A DNA stretch of 64,000 bases from a virus (IMGVR_UViG_3300029702_000002), one strand, 5' to 3'. Shown: positions 769 through 36,448, numbered from the stretch's first letter. The notes: generated by a model from the letters alone, not told the origin. Program-made: numbers and translations.

Positions 769-1418
769 TCGTCATCCTCATCCGAGTCATCCTCATCACA
801 GGATGAGAGTAGTGGGTTAGTCATTCGCCCTACTTGAGTGGCGTAGCCACGCCGACAGAGATTGCGCAGCACACTGTATATTTCGAACATCTCGGTTCGT
901 TCATCGCCAACATCAAGCTCAGATGCTATAGCGTGGCATTCAGTCGCGAGAGCCGATATTTTCTGAAATAACTCTGCATTATTCACTGTTCGACTCCTGC
1001 GGCGTTCTGGTAGTGGCATCCAGTGTGTGACATTGCTAATCAGACCATATTCATTAGTTTGAGGATGGTTGCCGTTATCGTCTCCGTATTTAAGACTCTC
1101 CATAAAGCCATAATGCCTATCACCATTAACGCTCACAAAGCCGTAATAAGCAGGTATAACGCCGATCTCACACGTAACCAGTAAAGGAAAACTAGTTCTC
1201 CAATTTAGCTCGCCAATTACAGGCATTCGCTCACTACAGCTTATCCAACCATCCTTAGTTGCTGCTGTATTGGCATAGGCCTTACGGTGCTTCTGTAGCT
1301 CTGCTGCAATCGCTCTCACGACTTCAACTGGTGCCCTTGCAGCAAACTCAATGTTGGTGATCAGCTCATTAAGATATTTCTCGCTTGGGTAGCATTTCTT
1401 ATTGTTAACGGTGGTCAT
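765..1418 (-). CDS. hypothetical protein with acidic C-terminal tail
   Basis: ORF track 217 aa, ends DEDDSDEDDE; operon context. Confidence 0.5.
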   Translation of the reverse strand: MTTVNNKKCYPSEKYLNELITNIEFAARAPVEVVRAIAAELQKHRKAYANTAATKDGWISCSERMPVIGELNWRTSFPLLVTCEIGVIPAYYGFVSVNGDRHYGFMESLKYGDDNGNHPQTNEYGLISNVTHWMPLPERRRSRTVNNAELFQKISALATECHAIASELDVGDERTEMFEIYSVLRNLCRRGYATQVGRMTNPLLSSCDEDDSDEDDE

Positions 1419-1639
1419 TAGATAGCTCTCTCAACAACAAGCAATTCGTCGTAGTCATAATCCGTTTCGGAACCATCTGTACCGAACAGAGTCACTTTGT
1501 CACCTTCCATCCAGAAAGATTTAACCGCACATCGTTTGCCTTTAGATGTTATGACCACATCACCTGGGATTACATCTTCAGCGCGAACTTCTACTGTTCT
1601 CATCATGCTGACCCTCTTTGGTGAAAACGCCTGATGCAA
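1418..1639 (-). CDS. hypothetical protein (73 aa)
   Basis: ORF track; start overlaps stop of 765..1418. Confidence 0.4.
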   Translation of the reverse strand: MHQAFSPKRVSMMRTVEVRAEDVIPGDVVITSKGKRCAVKSFWMEGDKVTLFGTDGSETDYDYDELLVVERAI

Positions 1640-2021
1640 TACTGTTTATGATGCTGTCAGTACAGGGAGTAGAAAGCTGGGCATCTCCAGCTATTTTCAT
1701 GACTTCGACATCCGCATATCGAATACCGAGGTGTATCAGACCTGCTATACCTGACTTAAGTCGAACATTTTCCATAAACAGATCCTTTTCCCGCTGTTTA
1801 ACGGTCTCCAGCTCAACACGCAACTTCTCAATTTCGGCAGCCATGTAGTAACCAACCATAGCGAAAGTGGCGAAAGGGTAGTCAGAATCATCAGGAGATA
1901 CGGAGGCCATTAGCAGACCATCGTGCATGTTCTGGCTTCCATCAGTGATGGATACCGCATAAGAATCGCTGGTTTCCCGTTTATACAATACGACGACCGG
2001 GTTCTTGATTTTCTCTCTCAT
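1578..2021 (-). CDS. hypothetical protein (147 aa)
   Basis: ORF track; overlaps downstream ORF by ~60 bp in another frame. Confidence 0.4.
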   Translation of the reverse strand: MREKIKNPVVVLYKRETSDSYAVSITDGSQNMHDGLLMASVSPDDSDYPFATFAMVGYYMAAEIEKLRVELETVKQREKDLFMENVRLKSGIAGLIHLGIRYADVEVMKIAGDAQLSTPCTDSIINSIASGVFTKEGQHDENSRSSR

Positions 2022-2575
2022 TACGATGCCTCTAACTTATCTAACTCTTTCAGCCCTTCACGTACCGCGTTCACAATGCGTTCCAGATACTGGTATTTCG
2101 GGTTTGGTACCGTTGGCCAGTCGGCATACCACGGATCATCACCAAAGAGATTCAGCAGTTTGTTACCGACGCCGAAACAACAGCAGCTTTCTTTTACGTC
2201 ATCGGCGTTTTCCGCCTCGTCCCACATTTCGCGAGCCAGTACGGCGTCTATTTCTCTCTCTCTTCGTAACTTTATGATTTCTGACTTTACGAAAAGCAGA
2301 TTTGCATCGTTGTCATCGTCGACCGTGCTTAGCAGTTGAGGGTCGAAATTGTCGATTAGATAATCGTTGCTAACTCGCTTAATGAACGTCTGCACATCAT
2401 CACCGCCCATAGCAAACCAAGCCGCAGTCCACGCTTTTCCGTAGCAGGTGATGGTGATTCTTCCCTTACCAGGTTCGTAGTTTTCAATCATCACTCGAAC
2501 CGGATCGAGGCGTTCCAGATCCGTCAGCACAAAGGAAAGAACATCTATTTTTTCGACCTTCATGCAGCCTCCCAC
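2021..2575 (-). CDS. hypothetical protein (184 aa)
   Basis: ORF track; operon context. Confidence 0.5.
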   Translation of the reverse strand: MGGCMKVEKIDVLSFVLTDLERLDPVRVMIENYEPGKGRITITCYGKAWTAAWFAMGGDDVQTFIKRVSNDYLIDNFDPQLLSTVDDDNDANLLFVKSEIIKLRREREIDAVLAREMWDEAENADDVKESCCCFGVGNKLLNLFGDDPWYADWPTVPNPKYQYLERIVNAVREGLKELDKLEAS

Positions 2576-3201
2576 GCGCTCCAGATCAGCGATTTGTGTT
2601 TTTCATAACGTTTGATGTGTACCGGTTTCAGAAGCGCAATACCTTCAGTGACTTTCGCCTTTGCGCTTAATAACAACGGGTGTTCTATACCTATCCTCTC
2701 CATGTACTCGACAACATCAGCGTTGGCACCAATCTCCTTCCCGTTAAAAAGTACGTCCAGCATCAGCTCTTTCTCTGCAAGGTAGATAGCTGAAAACTCA
2801 GGATCGCGACTCACGATAGAAGAGGTATTGTCGAGCAGGTCAGCCAGCTTGATCATGCGCGTCTGCATGTCGAGATTTTGCTCCAGCTCCCGGACATTGA
2901 TGATGAAACGCTGTATTCGATTGCCGTCTTCTGGCCTTGCAATGTTGGTCAGAGCCTGAACCATTTCAGCTACGCGCTCACCGAAGTGATCACGAACCAT
3001 CTCTATGGTTACATGGGTGTCTTCGACCACATCATGCAGAAGCGCCGCGATTTGCATCTCCACGGTTCCGTCATGCAATGCAACAATCTCTCGGACAGCA
3101 ACCGGGTGGTTGATGTAGTTTTCGCCGGTATATTTTCTTTTCTGACCAACGCCACCATGAGCGCCAGCGGCGAACATATGTGCTTCGGAAATACTAGACA
3201 T
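2560..3201 (-). CDS. HD-domain (p)ppGpp hydrolase-like protein (small alarmone hydrolase type)
   Basis: Segment ENYINHPVAVREIVALHDGTVEMQIAALLHDVVEDT...FGERVAEMVQALT matches the recalled SpoT/Rel hydrolase HD motif (HPVAV...LLHDVIEDT). Confidence 0.8.
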   Translation of the reverse strand: MSSISEAHMFAAGAHGGVGQKRKYTGENYINHPVAVREIVALHDGTVEMQIAALLHDVVEDTHVTIEMVRDHFGERVAEMVQALTNIARPEDGNRIQRFIINVRELEQNLDMQTRMIKLADLLDNTSSIVSRDPEFSAIYLAEKELMLDVLFNGKEIGANADVVEYMERIGIEHPLLLSAKAKVTEGIALLKPVHIKRYEKHKSLIWSAWEAA

Positions 3202-3320
3202 TCTTAACTCCGTTGTTTTCTAGTTGTGGTTATTTTCACAAATAAGAAAAGGCAGAAAACAATTTATTTAAGGCCACAACTTATGGCCTTTATTTATTCA
3301 CGCAGAAGGATTTGTAGCGT

Positions 3321-3701
3321 CTAATTGCCGGATAAAATGGGGTGAGGTGCTTGCCAGTAGGCTCCACCGTTCCATGTGAATCCCATGCGAATAAGAGTGT
3401 TTATTGCGGCTTTGGTAGACTCAGATTCGACACTGGCTTTTCGAAACTCTTGAACCTCTTTCGCCAACTTGTATGTAATTGTGCTGGGGACGATTGCAGC
3501 CCAGCCTTTCTCATGACTGTTAATGACCATCTGGATGTGACCATCCAGAATAGGTTGATTAGGCATGTTATTGAAAATGTCTGCCTGTTTTTGAATGTGA
3601 AGAAAAAGCCTTGCCAGCTCCATTTGCTCACTACGAGACAAGGGATTATCAAGAGGGCTTTTTGCAAAAGCGGCTATACGCTGTGCGTCAATGCCAAACA
3701 T
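3321..3701 (-). CDS. hypothetical protein (126 aa)
   Basis: ORF track; operon context. Confidence 0.45.
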   Translation of the reverse strand: MFGIDAQRIAAFAKSPLDNPLSRSEQMELARLFLHIQKQADIFNNMPNQPILDGHIQMVINSHEKGWAAIVPSTITYKLAKEVQEFRKASVESESTKAAINTLIRMGFTWNGGAYWQAPHPILSGN

Positions 3702-4466: not shown

Positions 4467-6152
4467 TCATTTAACGCGTTTGAAAACGTATACGCTGACT
4501 GTGATCCCTGTGTCTTCAAACTCGTTGGTAAACGACTTCCCTCTGGCATAAACGTAATTATCCATCGTCATCCAGTCCAGTATTGGCGCAGTGCCCGGCA
4601 ATACTGCTACAAGACGCCCGCCGACTTTCAGATGCCCCAGCGCAGCCAGCGTGTGCTCTCTATGACGACCAAGCGAATACGGCGGGTTCATAACGATTTT
4701 GTCGAACTGATAACCTACGTTGTCCTCAGACCACTTTATGAAGTCGCAGCAAATCGTGTTCGTATACCCTTTTCCACGCAGGATATCAGCGAAGAGAGGT
4801 GCGATTTCTATGCAGGTAACATCTTCCAGATCGGCGTTAATATAGGCCAGAAGATCCCCACGTCCGGCTTGAGGCTCCAGCAGCTTCTCACCAGGCTTCA
4901 ATTCAGTGGCTCTGGCAACGTACTCAGCAATCAAGCGTGGGGTAGGGTAGAACTGGTGTGATTTTGTATCCGGTATTAAACCGGTAGCCACAATCGTATT
5001 TAGCGTATGGACGATGTCATACGGGAACTGCCAGTGCTTTTTCTCCTGCACGCCGCCAATGAAGCTCAGTGTGCGCTCAAGCTCTTCCACCTGCGACTTC
5101 TGGAGAGCTGAATCAGAGAAGTACCATACGCCTTTGTCTTTGCTCAATCGCCCGTCACGAAGCGCAGTGCGAACCGGCACGGAGATCGTCTTCTGGATTA
5201 ACCCGAACTGCTTTGGTGCCCGTGTTTTTGGCGCGGTGCGACATGGCGCGGGGATTGCAGCAGGCATACTGTAAGCCAGCACCTCATTCAACTTCCAGGC
5301 CACGTCAGGATGTATTTCAAAGTGAACGTTGCCGTTCTTGAACATCTTCACGCGCATCAGATTTCCATCGACGTTCATCCAGTCACCGGTCTGGCAGTCG
5401 TTTGCCCGATACGCAGCTGATAGCACCTCAGCAGTGCGGTTGATGGTAATAAATTCTTTGTGCGCGAAGAAATGAAGCAAGACACGCAGATCGTCGATAT
5501 AGTCCTCTTTGCGATAGTTCACACTAACGCTGTCCCGCCAGAAATCAGAAATGCAGTCAGCGATTATCAGACGTTCGCTGAAACCGTTTGTCTTATTTGT
5601 CTTGTGCGCAGGACTCAGCGCCTTAAACAAGCCATACACGCGCTCAGAGAGATATTTGTGCCTGTCATTCAGCAAATTAAGCATCGTGGGTATGACCGTT
5701 TCTGCTTTGAACTCCGGTACACCAACGAACTCTTTTACCTTCATCTGATAGCCGGTTCTGTCAGTTTTGATGACTTCCTGCTTACCCTCGATAAACTGCT
5801 CACGCCACTCGTCGCGACGGGAAGCTGGCATGATCAGCAGAACGTTAGTCATATCCGTGACCTTCCTCCAGTACTCGGCCCAAATATTCTGTTTCACCCA
5901 TTCCAGATCGACTTTATCCAGCCAAGCTCGATTCAAACGTGAGCGTTCTTCATCTGGTCGGTGGTTCAGTTGCAGCAGGCGATTAATCATGTTGTGGCGT
6001 TCGTCTCCATAAACGAAGTCGTGAACCTGATACATGAAGGCGATCTCCTTCTCGCACTCGGCCACAATTTCGTGGATGACGTTCATTTCCTGACGATAAT
6101 CGATAGCAGTGTTTGAGTTGGCATCGTCGATGATGGAAAGAGCTGTATTCAT
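4467..6152 (-). CDS. DNA N6-adenine methyltransferase with ~400-aa N-terminal domain of unknown function
   Basis: C-terminal LLEPQAGRGDL (SAM-binding motif I) and DKIVMNPPY (motif IV, NPPY) typical of amino-methyltransferases. Confidence 0.75.
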   Translation of the reverse strand: MNTALSIIDDANSNTAIDYRQEMNVIHEIVAECEKEIAFMYQVHDFVYGDERHNMINRLLQLNHRPDEERSRLNRAWLDKVDLEWVKQNIWAEYWRKVTDMTNVLLIMPASRRDEWREQFIEGKQEVIKTDRTGYQMKVKEFVGVPEFKAETVIPTMLNLLNDRHKYLSERVYGLFKALSPAHKTNKTNGFSERLIIADCISDFWRDSVSVNYRKEDYIDDLRVLLHFFAHKEFITINRTAEVLSAAYRANDCQTGDWMNVDGNLMRVKMFKNGNVHFEIHPDVAWKLNEVLAYSMPAAIPAPCRTAPKTRAPKQFGLIQKTISVPVRTALRDGRLSKDKGVWYFSDSALQKSQVEELERTLSFIGGVQEKKHWQFPYDIVHTLNTIVATGLIPDTKSHQFYPTPRLIAEYVARATELKPGEKLLEPQAGRGDLLAYINADLEDVTCIEIAPLFADILRGKGYTNTICCDFIKWSEDNVGYQFDKIVMNPPYSLGRHREHTLAALGHLKVGGRLVAVLPGTAPILDWMTMDNYVYARGKSFTNEFEDTGITVSVYVFKRVK

Positions 6153-6255: not shown

Positions 6256-6927
6256 CTAATCATACTTTGAGGTATTTATAACCAGGATTTTGTTTGTATA
6301 AATCTTCTTAATATCCCATGTGACATTACCGGAATACCATTGACCGTTATATACTTGGTTTCCAGTTGCACCGGTCATAGTTACATAGACAGGTCTGTCG
6401 TAATCGGTTCGTCTATAGTTATAAACCCCAACCATAGCAGGCATTACCGCACACGGATACCCCACATCTATGGTAAATTGAGGGTCCGAAATAGTGATAA
6501 GTTTCGCATCAAGGGGCATCATCTCACCGTGATACACCATTGCGCCTGCGCTGTTATACATGGCAATGCCATAGCCAGAATGTGGTAACACCATATCAGA
6601 AAAAGCATAAACTGTTATTGTTCCGGGGCTACCATTTACCTGATGCAATCTGAGAGCATTGTATCCGTTACTATGCTCATGAATAAACATCATGTTCGCC
6701 TTATTACTGCTTTTTATGAAGAAAAAGCATGATTTGTTTGATGGGATTGATGTTTGAAAAACAGAACCTTTAGATGTAGACATTGTCCCTTTATTAATCA
6801 GATTTTGCGGAGTAAATTCTGGACTCATCCACAAACTTCCATCTGATTGAGTAATTGACATCCCGAACATAATTATCCCCAGTATGTGTATATGTAAGAA
6901 CCAAGCCCCGTATATAAATTTGACCAA
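6256..6927 (-). CDS. hypothetical protein (223 aa), possibly C-terminal part of a frameshifted gene
   Basis: ORF track; low-GC; overlaps upstream ORF 6873..7154 by 55 bp in another frame. Confidence 0.35.
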   Translation of the reverse strand: MVKFIYGAWFLHIHILGIIMFGMSITQSDGSLWMSPEFTPQNLINKGTMSTSKGSVFQTSIPSNKSCFFFIKSSNKANMMFIHEHSNGYNALRLHQVNGSPGTITVYAFSDMVLPHSGYGIAMYNSAGAMVYHGEMMPLDAKLITISDPQFTIDVGYPCAVMPAMVGVYNYRRTDYDRPVYVTMTGATGNQVYNGQWYSGNVTWDIKKIYTNKILVINTSKYD

Positions 6928-32762: not shown

Positions 32763-33751
32763 TACCTTTCGAATGGAAGAACAAACACTTCAAGGTCTTC
32801 AAGGAACGAACGGAAATTCAGCTCGTAGCACAGTTGCTCGAATGCTTTCACGTCACGATTGCCTTTGATTGTTTCGATTTCGGTAGGCGGAAACTTCGTC
32901 TCAATCAGGTTCATTAGCGTGATGTTTCTCTTGAACGCTTCGAGCATTCGACAGCCTGTTTTCTCGTTGAAGGCATTCTTCGCTAGTTTGTTGAAGGCGG
33001 TCTTATGACGCCCTTTATTAACCACGATTGAGCCGTCGTTGATGCCGCGTACCATCGTTGCGACACTTCCCCATTCATGCAGCAGCTCTTTCGCACCGCC
33101 AGCACCAATGCCACCAACACCGCTAATGTTGTCCGAGTTATCGCCTTGTAATGCTTTTGCTTCCAAAAATGCGCGAGGCGTGGCGAATCCTGTCAGCTCC
33201 GCAAATTGCTCAAAATTAACCTGCTTGTTTTTGGCGTCTTCACGCAGGCTTACCCAGCTTACGTTTTCACGAACTAACTGAAGCCAGTCGCTATCGCCTG
33301 TTAACAGATAGATGTGTTCAACGATTGGCTGCGGTGCAATGCTGGCTACCAGCAGCCCGGCCAGATCATCCGCTTCTGCATCTTTTGCAATGAGTTGGGT
33401 AACTCCAAGCGCGGTCATCATTTTGAGGATGTATGGCTTCTGGATAGCAAAGCCTTCCTTCATCTTTTTCATATCAGGATCGTCGTCGCGATTTGCTTTG
33501 TAGTCCGGGTAAAAGTCGCGACGCTTGTCACTAAATCCATCCCAAAGAATCATAGGTCGGGCATGGAGGATGGAGGCATAACGACGGACGTTCTTAACAA
33601 AGCCGAAAGCAGCCTGTACTTCCATTTCGCCGTTGTGCAATTTGTCAGATTGTTGGTGGTAATAACCCAGGCTATTGCCATCTACGAAGAGATAATTCAC
33701 CGGTACATTCCTTCCAAAAAGTAAGGCGTCCGTAGACGCCTTACTGGTCAC
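32756..33751 (-). CDS. 5'-3' exonuclease / flap endonuclease
   Basis: LFVDGNSL, LTGDSD, GDNSDNISGVGGIG motifs. Confidence 0.85.
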   Translation of the reverse strand: MTSKASTDALLFGRNVPVNYLFVDGNSLGYYHQQSDKLHNGEMEVQAAFGFVKNVRRYASILHARPMILWDGFSDKRRDFYPDYKANRDDDPDMKKMKEGFAIQKPYILKMMTALGVTQLIAKDAEADDLAGLLVASIAPQPIVEHIYLLTGDSDWLQLVRENVSWVSLREDAKNKQVNFEQFAELTGFATPRAFLEAKALQGDNSDNISGVGGIGAGGAKELLHEWGSVATMVRGINDGSIVVNKGRHKTAFNKLAKNAFNEKTGCRMLEAFKRNITLMNLIETKFPPTEIETIKGNRDVKAFEQLCYELNFRSFLEDLEVFVLPFERYC

Positions 33752-33760
33752 GTAATGGGA

Positions 33761-34789
33761 TTACAGAGAGTCCAGCTCTCTCAGTAGGTCATCCAGACCT
33801 TCATCTTCCGTCGCAGATGCGGCTGCTACAGATGTCGCTGCGACTGCTTCAGACTCTTTGACTGATACTGCAACGGCAGCGGAACTTGCTTCTGGTTTAA
33901 ATTCAGTTTCAACGGCACGGAGGATTTCTTCATCAACCAGACTGGTTGGTTCAGAAGCTGGGGTATGAGCGGTAGCTACAGCCGTCGCTCCTTCTGTATG
34001 ACCAGTGACAGAGCCAAATCCAGGTAGTGCCGCAGCCGATGTTTTCGCGGTTGAGGAAATTGCTGGTGCAGATGCTGCGGCAGTTGGTGCAGCGATGCCA
34101 ATCAGACGACCCATAGTGCGAACTGTCGACAGAAGACGAGTTTCATCAGCCTGATTTGCGTATGCGATCAGATCATGCTGGGTATTCCAGAATTTATCTT
34201 CGATATCGCCTTTGTAGACTTTACGCTTAGGCGAGACGTCATATTTGGTATCGCGACCAGAGCCAGTACGTTTAATCAGGAATGCGTAGCCTTCCTCTTT
34301 GCTCAGTGGATTGCCGATATCATCAGCGATGTCTTCGGTGATTGCTTTGCAGATATCATCGAATACAGTAGACGGCAGCTCGATTAACTGGCATTTCTCA
34401 GCATCTGCGAAATCCTCACGAGCAGAAAGAATGCCGTTGACCAGGTAGCGAGGAGTGGCACGCATTTGACCGATGCGTTCTTCCATTGCTTTGTTACCCT
34501 TGTGACGAGCGCGACCTTCCATCACCATTTCGCATAGCTGACAAGCGCGACCGTGAGTATGTTGCTCACAAATATAAGCGTTGGTTGCTTCTTTACCTTC
34601 CTCGTTCTGATACTTAACGTAGTGCATACCGAAAGTCTGGAAGAACTTACCGTTTGGGTCGTCTTTATTCGGGAAGATGCGGATATAGTTGACGCCGTCT
34701 TTTAAGCGAGTCAGATCAACGTTGTTACCACGTTTGGCGGCAATGTCTTCACGAGTTTTGTTAAGCAAATCAAGTAATGTCTTAGACAT
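33761..34789 (-). CDS. T4 gp32-like single-stranded DNA-binding protein
   Basis: IRIFP...YICEQHTHGRACQLC zinc-site pattern resembling recalled gp32; acidic C-terminal tail DEGLDDLLRELDSL. Confidence 0.7.
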   Translation of the reverse strand: MSKTLLDLLNKTREDIAAKRGNNVDLTRLKDGVNYIRIFPNKDDPNGKFFQTFGMHYVKYQNEEGKEATNAYICEQHTHGRACQLCEMVMEGRARHKGNKAMEERIGQMRATPRYLVNGILSAREDFADAEKCQLIELPSTVFDDICKAITEDIADDIGNPLSKEEGYAFLIKRTGSGRDTKYDVSPKRKVYKGDIEDKFWNTQHDLIAYANQADETRLLSTVRTMGRLIGIAAPTAAASAPAISSTAKTSAAALPGFGSVTGHTEGATAVATAHTPASEPTSLVDEEILRAVETEFKPEASSAAVAVSVKESEAVAATSVAAASATEDEGLDDLLRELDSL

Positions 34790-35482: not shown

Positions 35483-36448
35483 ATGAATAAAGCTAACAAT
35501 CAAGCAAAAGCAGAAAAGCCTGTGCCGACTAAAGAACTGTCCCCACCCCCAAAAGTTAAGACTGCGAGGTCAGCAGCAGAAAAAAATAAAACTGAAGGCA
35601 TGACATATCCGAAGACCAGCGCAGAAGGACACGCTGGTGAGTACTTATTTGCTTATTGGATTTCTCGTTATTTCAAATGGCCTTGTCGACTGCTGGATAT
35701 TGATATGGGGTTGGATGCACAGGTTGAAATCTATGAAAATGAACTTTCTACCGGTATGTTTATTGGCGTTCAGGTAAAAACCACCTCACGCACAATGAGT
35801 AGTAGTCTAGGAGTACAGATCCCCTATAAAAATTTAAAGTATTGGGGGGAATGCGATTTCCCTATAGTGATCGTTTTAATTTGTCTAAACGAAGATAATA
35901 AGCATGAAGAGCCAGATATTTACTGGCGGCATTTAGACAAACAAACCATCGCATCGTTATCAAGTACAGCGGATTACAATAACTCAGGAAGTACATCAGT
36001 AACATTTAACGAAGACCAATATCTGAAATCTCCAAGGGATAGAGAGAAATGGCTTAGATTATGGCTATCTAGTGAAGATCTGAAGATCATTGAACGATGC
36101 GAAGGTATTGAGAGAAACATTACTGCATTAGGGAAATTCTTTGAAGAAACAATTGTGGACGGGGATTTAAAACAGGGACTACCAACTCTTGATTTTTTTC
36201 GTAATTTAAACGATTTGTTGGACTCATATGATGAGGTGGAATTGGCTATTAGAGGTAACAATCGACTAGAGTATCTATCAGAGGAAGTTAAATCACTTAA
36301 AAAATGTCATGAGCGCTATATGCCTAAAATTATGTATGCCTTTGAACAGGCGTGCGAATCAAATAGTGTCATGATGAGTGATTTCGATCCGTATTCCCCT
36401 ATAAATAATAAACTCCATACTATACTAGTTAATAATAGAATTTATTAA
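35483..36448 (+). CDS. PD-(D/E)xK nuclease-like protein of unknown function (start may be GTG at 35468)
   Basis: GEYLF...D.GLDAQVEI...IGVQVKT resembles a D..E.K nuclease core; lower-GC plus-strand insert with own terminator. Confidence 0.55.
   Translation: MNKANNQAKAEKPVPTKELSPPPKVKTARSAAEKNKTEGMTYPKTSAEGHAGEYLFAYWISRYFKWPCRLLDIDMGLDAQVEIYENELSTGMFIGVQVKTTSRTMSSSLGVQIPYKNLKYWGECDFPIVIVLICLNEDNKHEEPDIYWRHLDKQTIASLSSTADYNNSGSTSVTFNEDQYLKSPRDREKWLRLWLSSEDLKIIERCEGIERNITALGKFFEETIVDGDLKQGLPTLDFFRNLNDLLDSYDEVELAIRGNNRLEYLSEEVKSLKKCHERYMPKIMYAFEQACESNSVMMSDFDPYSPINNKLHTILVNNRIY

Follow-up and report, generated by a model that had tools for sequence, protein, structure and literature searches.

The question raised by this locus is whether a short frame in the window, by which we mean the whole 64,000-nucleotide stretch of DNA that was analysed, encodes an alarmone hydrolase, and if so what such an enzyme would do for the element that carries it. 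The initial annotation had placed at 2560-3201 a phage-borne, stand-alone SpoT/Rel-type (p)ppGpp hydrolase of about 210 aa, without giving a strand. The ORF list contains exactly this frame, on the minus strand and complete with ATG start and stop, and the resulting coding sequence (2560..3201, minus strand) specifies 213 aa; its identification as a hydrolase draws on the ORF list, Pfam, identity to SSU5_099, an AlphaFold2 model and Foldseek. The translation contains YINHPVAVREIVALHDGTVEMQIAALLHDVVEDT, which is the segment that had been quoted as HPVAV...LLHDVVEDT. The minus-strand codons for H56, D57, V58 and V59, including the HD dyad, occupy 3025..3036, as established by translation, a scripted residue check and alignment, and they are directly followed by the codons for E60 and D61 (3019-3024, minus strand), read from the translation within the core LLHDVVEDT.

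A GGAG ribosome-binding site (3208..3211, minus strand) stands 6 nt before the ATG at 3201, and the TGA stop codon (2562..2560) forms an ATGA overlap (2560..2563, minus strand) with the ATG (2563..2561) of the next gene, a 180-aa frame at 2021..2563 on the same strand that has no Pfam or PADLOC match and goes by 'Eae-like' in phage Cyrano and, in RefSeq, by 'phiTE_072 family protein'. A GGGAGG is found within the final hydrolase codons, ahead of the downstream ATG. Given the GGAG site, the ATGA overlap and the internal GGGAGG, the gene can apparently be translated, with translational coupling to the gene downstream, the overlap and the GGGAGG having the appearance of the arrangement expected for coupling; the downstream gene was also called as co-transcribed with the hydrolase. 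The 4-nt overlap is identical in SSU5, where SSU5_099 ends at 6642 and SSU5_100 starts at 6639, and the coding sequences 84513-85154 and 83974-84516 of plasmid CP057798.1 overlap in the same way.

On the 5' side of the hydrolase is an intergenic region (3202..3320, minus strand), delimited by a three-way DNA alignment, and beyond it an 'Eaa-like' gene of 126 aa in the same orientation (3321..3701, minus strand), which has no Pfam match. From about 3222 onward the intergenic DNA is backbone, conserved in both SSU5 and the hydrolase-less Cyrano, and it includes a 7-bp GC-rich hairpin (3270-3290) whose stem is kept in SSU5 and whose loop differs. A consensus scan of 3202-3320 returned no minus-strand sigma-70 promoter, and the only terminator-like hairpin in this interval was the one at 3270-3290, on the plus strand, with the number of terminator-like sites in all being within shuffled expectation. 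The Eaa-like gene and the hydrolase are part of a leftward block of small accessory genes, and the block is composed of small lambdoid-type early genes (Ea22/Eaa/Eae-like).

The element itself could be identified by comparison with complete sequences. At 99.996% identity the window matches the E. coli plasmid pRHB14-C22_3 (CP057798.1), a circular molecule of 108,954 bp from pig faeces in the UK, and maps to it from 81954 through the origin to 36999. This plasmid encodes a major capsid protein, portal, terminase, tape measure and tail fibre, and also ParB-like proteins, DnaE, primase, ligase, NrdAB, thymidylate synthase and an integrase. By megablast, the window shows over its first 12 kb 95-97% identity, across 82-89% of that length, to three Escherichia phages, Cyrano, CMS-2020a and PhiR41_1, the values for Cyrano and CMS-2020a being 97% across 85-89%; for Salmonella phage SSU5 the identity is 84% across 52%. 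The features that define an SSU5-type phage-plasmid, namely a circular plasmid of ~100-115 kb, a siphovirus structural module, replication/partition genes and collinearity with phage SSU5, are all present, and the carrier is such a phage-plasmid. Because the window is nearly identical to a circular phage-plasmid with structural genes, the description of the gene as phage-borne was a fair one, in the phage-plasmid sense. The element carries, in addition, plasmid-specific variants of tRNA-Thr(UGU), tRNA-Asn(GUU) and tRNA-Ser(UGA), and these Thr, Asn and Ser tRNAs match the isoacceptor types of known PARIS/AriB targets, with Thr also being a target type of FaRel2. A methionyl-tRNA synthetase gene is located on the same element just beyond the window, and in sister plasmids this gene is directly followed by a second hydrolase paralogue, degenerate in having HG in place of HD.

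The profile and sequence searches support the domain assignment at a level well above chance expectation. Within residues 8-135 Pfam recognises HD_4 (PF13328, E=1.2e-18, scoring 67.8 bits where 27.2 is the cut-off) together with HD (PF01966, E=6.7e-6), PHROG 990, 'metal-dependent phosphohydrolase', matches at E=1.4e-54, and the NCBIfam model TIGR00691 (spoT_relA) matches at E=1.2e-24 over profile positions 1-123 of 687 only, which is the hydrolase part. A sequence search of the PDB returned 22 sequences at E<=0.01, all of them hydrolases of the RelA/SpoT homologue (RSH) superfamily or small alarmone hydrolases, including SpoT (7qpr/7qps), Rel (5xnx/1vj7/6s2t), MESH1 (3nr1/5vxa) and small hydrolases (7qoe/7qoc/6yvc), and the best of these matches were SpoT/Rel hydrolase domains at E of about 1e-12 to 1e-13. 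The domain proposed at the outset is therefore borne out by HD_4, PHROG 990, the hydrolase part of TIGR00691 and the PDB matches alike. It is also the only domain, as Pfam finds nothing besides HD_4/HD, the predicted structure is one compact all-helical domain and there is no synthetase domain, so that the protein is indeed stand-alone and close to the length first estimated. A long bifunctional RSH of the SpoT/Rel kind was considered and ruled out, since the protein has 213 aa and its scores fall far under the equivalog/subfamily cut-offs (86.6 bits against 499.2 for TIGR00691, and 60.7 against 947 for a second profile).

The active site is complete. The motifs HP, LLHDV(V/I)EDT and KLAD..N align column for column with those of SpoT, M. 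tuberculosis Rel and human MESH1, and H56 and D57, E60 and D61, H32, R22, D121 and N125 are all present and aligned to the three proteins. Alignment to SpoT and MESH1 was the check that the initial annotation had proposed, and both the HD pair and the ED pair came through it. In an alignment of 63 homologues, R22, Y24, Y29, H32, P33, H56, E60, D61, T62, K118, D121, N125 and E143 are invariant, with near-invariance at H15 and at D57, where, among the sequences inspected, the homologue P0009 has a glycine. From the structures of RelSeq and MESH1, we take H32, H56, D57 and D121 to be the Mn2+ ligands and E60 and D61 to be the catalytic pair, and we assume that a basic residue and an Asn bind the 3'-pyrophosphate, as expected of an RSH hydrolase. 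By this assignment the metal ligands (H..HD..D), the ED pair, the basic residue and the Asn are all intact.

An AlphaFold2 model built from the homologue alignment is all-helical, with a mean pLDDT of 97.0 and a pTM of 0.92. The top Foldseek matches in the PDB were only RSH hydrolases, comprising MESH1, C. glutamicum RelH, a P. aeruginosa small alarmone hydrolase, T. thermophilus Rel and full-length SpoT, and the alignment with MESH1 (3nr1) gave TM-scores of 0.69/0.81 and an rmsd of 2.7 Å. Against viral predicted structures, many phage HD-domain or (p)ppGpp-hydrolase-like proteins were recovered. Compared with MESH1 (179 aa) and with environmental homologues of 165-180 aa, the protein has ~35 extra C-terminal residues, which in the model form helices at 175-189 and 193-212. 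One consideration arising from the structural matches is that the best of them include the complexes of MESH1 with NADPH (5vxa) and PAPS (9chy), and the metabolic promiscuity of small alarmone hydrolases has been noted (PMC9765508), suggesting a non-alarmone phosphatase whose real substrate, as reported for metazoan MESH1, is NADPH, PAPS or another 3'/2'-phosphorylated metabolite. However, the identity to MESH1 is only 27-30%, the rescue from toxins that is described below for the SSU5 orthologue is explained by removal of a 3'-pyrophosphate, and we found no evidence of a phage need for NADPH depletion, such that this proposal appears highly improbable.

The closest characterized relative is found in phage SSU5. 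A tblastn search of 50,697 phage records had SSU5 as its top match, at 87.3% identity and 100% coverage and in a single place in that genome, where it corresponds to SSU5_099 (AFL47026.1), a protein of 213 aa annotated 'putative guanosine polyphosphate pyrophospho hydrolase/synthetase'. As the sole tblastn match in the SSU5 genome, SSU5_099 was identified as the PaSpo(SSU5) construct of Jimmy et al., who assigned the SSU5 protein to the PaSpo subfamily and regarded it as a hydrolase that stands alone (Jimmy et al. 2020, PMC7229694). Judged by sequence identity, which is 87% to PaSpo(SSU5) versus 20-30% to the small alarmone hydrolases and MESH1 of the PDB, the protein would belong in the same subfamily, and taken with its domain, residues and fold it is almost certainly a PaSpo-family hydrolase. 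The two genes share 89% nucleotide identity with a dN/dS of 0.18 (Nei-Gojobori), which indicates purifying selection where the gene is intact.

What the enzyme does is best approached through this orthologue. In co-expression experiments in E. coli, PaSpo(SSU5) neutralised all five of the validated toxSAS toxins, CapRel, PhRel, PhRel2, FaRel2 and FaRel (PMC7229694 Table 1), and it serves as a helper for the expression and purification of CapRel(SJ46) (PMC9712102); FaRel2 is likewise detoxified by PaSpo(SSU5) during purification, with leaky expression being enough (PMC11559606). The latter paper, from 2024, states that PaSpo acts 'by removing the tRNA modification', citing Jimmy et al. and Kurata et al. 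The in vitro experiments of Kurata et al., in which aminoacylation of FaRel2-pyrophosphorylated tRNA was restored, were performed with MESH1 and ATfaRel. The evidence on PaSpo and toxSAS thus appears to be one of co-expression rescue, with direct repair of tRNA in vitro belonging to MESH1 and ATfaRel and applying to PaSpo by analogy. Both functions that had been suggested for the window's gene, suppression of the stringent response and neutralisation of toxins, had already been proposed for phage hydrolases (PMC7229694 Discussion), and of these the second stands on co-expression for the 87%-identical SSU5 orthologue and would extend to this copy by analogy.

Taking together the domain, the catalytic residues, the fold, the orthology and the rescue by the orthologue, the gene probably provides an active PaSpo-type 3'-pyrophosphohydrolase that shields the element from toxSAS abortive infection. 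In such a scheme the element would enter, or reside in, a cell with a toxSAS abortive-infection system, for example the CapRel of phage SJ46. The Mn2+ held by H32, H56, D57 and D121 would act together with E60-D61 to cleave the 3'-pyrophosphate off a ribose, and by analogy the substrates might be (pp)pApp, (p)ppGpp and the pyrophosphorylated 3'-CCA end of tRNA. With the product of the toxSAS undone, translation could go on and the element could replicate, and a lowering of host (p)ppGpp may be an added effect. Because the hydrolase would act on the product and not on the toxin protein, one enzyme could cover all toxSAS classes. The gene for CapRel(SJ46) is carried by a temperate phage of Salmonella, an identical CapRel is found in E. 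coli prophages, and this occurrence in both hosts means that a target exists within the host range of the element. The literature searched contained no case in which a phage hydrolase of this kind rescued a phage from toxSAS defence during infection, and a December 2025 phage paper presents the role of such phage hydrolases as still a hypothesis.

The gene order around the hydrolase bears on a different possibility, in which it is the type IV antitoxin of a cis-encoded toxSAS module, similar to ATfaRel, and so a component of an addiction or defence module belonging to the plasmid itself. Small alarmone hydrolases can indeed be antitoxins (ATfaRel, PbcSpo subfamily), and the translational coupling to the downstream gene is what such a module might show. 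Against this, no RelA_SpoT synthetase domain was detected by Pfam in the 8-10 neighbouring ORFs, the coupled gene included, and the only Pfam matches above the curated cut-off among the flanking ORFs were DUF4942 and DUF551. PADLOC returned no match for the hydrolase or for the three genes closest to it, and the annotation of the identical plasmid CP057798.1, with its 119 features, lists no synthetase-like gene. The downstream 180-aa gene persists without the hydrolase in Cyrano, which would not be expected of a toxin, and the SSU5 protein was itself classed by Jimmy et al. as standing alone (PMC7229694). With no toxSAS partner adjacent or annotated on the plasmid, the antitoxin proposal is largely refuted and was rejected, having next to no probability left; the gene is an orphan hydrolase and not an antitoxin.

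The distribution of the gene is informative as to how it is used. It was found in 41 of 5,426 complete E. coli genomes (36 of them with the full length), and each of the 43 occurrences in E. coli is plasmid-borne. The neighbouring backbone methyltransferase is present in 249 of the same 5,426 genomes (187 full length), so that the hydrolase is carried by roughly 15-20% of E. coli SSU5-type elements (36-41 of 187-249 backbone carriers). In PLSDB, of 291 plasmids matching the 1.8-kb neighbourhood, 40 hold at least 80% of it. Among the 50,697 phage records, tblastn matches of at least 60% identity are confined to three, two of which are SSU5, and the gene is absent from the records of Cyrano, CMS-2020a and PhiR41_1. 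In the case of Cyrano the conserved intergenic region joins the Eae-like gene directly.

Where traces of the gene remain, they take several forms. Only its first 39 nt are left in pF404-2, beside two deletions. In AP026520.1 the match is split in two, with two transposase genes annotated beneath and no HD-domain gene listed, which is consistent with an IS insertion, and in another plasmid an IS5/IS1182-family transposase is annotated over a 44-nt remnant. The protein cluster P0011 is a 139-aa truncation of the hydrolase, and two further clusters are fusions to its C-terminus, of an AAA-ATPase N-terminus in P0010 and of an Ead-like N-terminus in P0012, with the catalytic HD dyad being lost from both. 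Klebsiella SSU5-type elements have a homologue of 51-58% identity in the same accessory region, located upstream of the DUF4942 methyltransferase, whereas the E. coli hydrolase is downstream of it. The hydrolase is thus an accessory gene that has been repeatedly deleted, truncated or fused, and its absence from most related phage-plasmids together with its frequent decay indicates that any benefit is conditional. We infer that the gene is selected where present yet easily lost, as would be expected of a conditional counter-defence or accessory gene.

This pattern is of direct relevance to the first of the two functions originally suggested, in which the enzyme degrades host (p)ppGpp and thereby sustains a high rate of rRNA, ribosome and nucleotide synthesis in the lytic phase, or adjusts host physiology while the element is resident as a plasmid. 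In fold and active site the protein matches the (p)ppGpp 3'-pyrophosphohydrolases SpoT, Rel and MESH1, and the genes just upstream, nrdAB, thymidylate synthase and DHFR, represent a heavy investment in nucleotide supply that would fit a need for an unrestricted host. It has been proposed, moreover, that alarmone build-up restricts phages and that phage hydrolases bypass the restriction (PMC7229694 Discussion), and a 2026 preprint describes the stringent response as a barrier to infection. Yet E. coli already has its own SpoT, the literature searched yielded no data on (p)ppGpp hydrolysis by PaSpo, and ~80% of related E. coli phage-plasmids do without the gene, which fits conditional counter-defence better than a core function in host takeover. 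Suppression of the stringent response as the reason for carriage consequently seems rather unlikely, though it is compatible with counter-defence and the two are not exclusive.

That all E. coli copies are plasmid-borne, and hence resident, also allows for immunity by lysogenic conversion, with the hydrolase of the resident plasmid guarding its host from (p)ppApp-synthetase toxins, such as Tas1-type type VI effectors or those of other mobile elements, and thereby favouring carriage of the plasmid. PaSpo(SSU5) does neutralise FaRel, a (pp)pApp maker, and bacterial small alarmone hydrolases and the Aph1-type (p)ppApp hydrolases are distant relatives in sequence and fold (7smg, 6yvc). The hydrolase is nevertheless situated among early genes of lambdoid type and not beside plasmid maintenance or cargo genes, and no evidence was found for Tas1-type toxins acting on E. 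coli in nature, leaving this explanation improbable.

Within the preferred reading of counter-defence against toxSAS, a narrower version can be entertained tentatively, as possible though doubtful. Here SSU5-type phage-plasmids would possess a kit for the protection of tRNA, to which the tRNAs and the methionyl-tRNA synthetase described above would also belong, and of which the hydrolase may be one arm; its native substrate would be damaged tRNA with a 3'-pyrophosphorylated CCA, and the extra C-terminal helices may mediate the recognition of tRNA. If this were true, counter-defence during infection could be tested directly on two natural opponents found in the same hosts, an SSU5-type element and the CapRel of SJ46.

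The finding itself is an ordinary one, since the PaSpo family already has a name and its type member, from SSU5, has been tested against five toxSAS toxins. The gene is an intact PaSpo orthologue whose exact sequence was already public as 'HD domain-containing protein', the annotation also given to identical or near-identical copies in dozens of sequenced E. coli plasmids, and this could become 'small alarmone hydrolase, PaSpo family'. The patchy presence of the gene and its many decay forms offer a natural system for the study of counter-defence by phage hydrolases against toxSAS such as CapRel. Whether such counter-defence operates in real infections is a wider question that is not particular to the window's gene, and in the literature searched it is still posed as a hypothesis.

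Comparison with known systems places the protein among enzymes of one domain type. The long RSH enzymes SpoT and Rel (7qpr, 5xnx, 1vj7, 6s2t) have the same hydrolase domain and motifs, but at ~700 aa compared with 213 aa they also contain synthetase, TGS and ACT/RRM domains that the present protein lacks. MESH1 (HDDC3; 3nr1, 3nqw, 5vxa) of human and Drosophila is the closest solved fold, with the HD, ED, KLAD..N and R/K motifs aligned, and it resembles the toxSAS-neutralising hydrolases in its ability to rescue cells from toxSAS and to repair pyrophosphorylated tRNA in vitro; it differs in being metazoan, in its 179-aa length, in a reported NADPH phosphatase activity and in having no extra C-terminal helices. 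The PbcSpo-subfamily proteins, C. marina ATfaRel and the hydrolase of Salmonella phage PVP-SE1, similarly consist of the RSH hydrolase domain alone and are able to neutralise every toxSAS class, and for ATfaRel the neutralisation is abolished by the active-site substitution D54A. They are members of another subfamily, however, and ATfaRel is in an operon with the toxin FaRel, unlike the present gene, which has no toxSAS partner. The nearest system remains PaSpo(SSU5), which has the same length of 213 aa, the same catalytic residues and the same type of phage-plasmid carrier, and which occupies the same slot, with an Eaa-like gene and a hairpin-bearing intergenic region upstream and an Eae-like gene downstream. 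The differences are in the host, which is Salmonella for SSU5 and E. coli here, and in 27 substitutions, of which about half are in the last 65 residues, in the C-terminal helices, and none are in the motifs.

A divergent paralogue of the phage-plasmid's alarmone hydrolase is found in three E. coli SSU5-type contigs (L006-L008), where it is represented by the 231-amino-acid protein P0009, encoded at 5001-5696 of L006 and L007 and lying outside the window. P0009 is 63% identical to the hydrolase, but it has replaced the catalytic HD dyad with HG and H15 with tyrosine, and a plasmid-borne methionyl-tRNA synthetase gene lies directly 5' of its gene. The paralogue may be a catalytically impaired derivative that binds tRNA or nucleotide. 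The window's own plasmid carries metG and apbC just beyond the window, at 77195-80486 of the CP057798.1 record, and no P0009-like paralogue is annotated there in the slot directly downstream of metG.

Decayed forms of the hydrolase itself include protein clusters P0010, P0011 and P0012, which comprise one 139-amino-acid truncation and two in-frame fusions, one with an AAA-ATPase N-terminus and the other with an Ead-like N-terminus, with both fusions lacking the catalytic HD dyad. In plasmid pF404-2 the equivalent of window positions 1258-3162 has been deleted, leaving only a 39-nt 5' remnant of the hydrolase gene (1501-1539 of contig L012). A GC-rich intergenic hairpin upstream of the hydrolase (AAGGCCA-loop-TGGCCTT, window 3270-3290) is retained in Cyrano, an Escherichia phage that has no hydrolase gene, and its SSU5 counterpart has a stem longer by one pair and a different loop; this hairpin could act as a terminator, an RNA-stability element or a binding site.

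The position of the hydrolase gene also differs between hosts. In the Klebsiella SSU5-type contigs L009-L011, a homologue approximately 52% identical to the hydrolase (5001-5639) is encoded directly 5' of the DUF4942 methyltransferase gene, whereas in E. coli and Salmonella the hydrolase is two genes downstream of it, indicating that the gene has moved within the same accessory region. The DUF4942 protein of the window (561 amino acids, 4467-6152, minus strand) has a SAM-methyltransferase region at its C-terminus and matches the PADLOC mad2 model (1.1e-15) as well as type II methyltransferase models. Its gene belongs to the conserved SSU5-type backbone; among 5,426 complete E. coli genomes, 249 carry it. 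The protein is probably an orphan self-protecting methylase.

A 321-amino-acid DUF4365-domain protein is encoded at window 35483-36448 on the plus strand, opposite to its neighbors, a small hypothetical-protein gene and dnaE. It gave a partial match to the PADLOC Aga_REase-PNTD1-PNTD2 model (E=2.2e-10), and the gene may be defence or nuclease cargo of the phage-plasmid.

[quoted passage not shown] A megablast search of complete E. coli genomes placed them at 991 plasmid positions and only 13 chromosomal ones, and they are therefore variants that belong to mobile elements, not duplicates of the host's own tRNAs. The toxic alarmone synthetase FaRel2 targets tRNA-Gly and tRNA-Thr, and the three window tRNAs may be counter-defence tRNAs. 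Finally, a DUF1778 protein (window 60589-60858) is followed by a GNAT N-acetyltransferase (60866-61387), both on the plus strand; the CP057798.1 record carries annotations for the two genes at 33588-34386. TacA/TacT-type toxin-antitoxin pairs, whose toxins acetylate aminoacyl-tRNA, usually have this gene order. The two genes probably form an addiction module of the plasmid.
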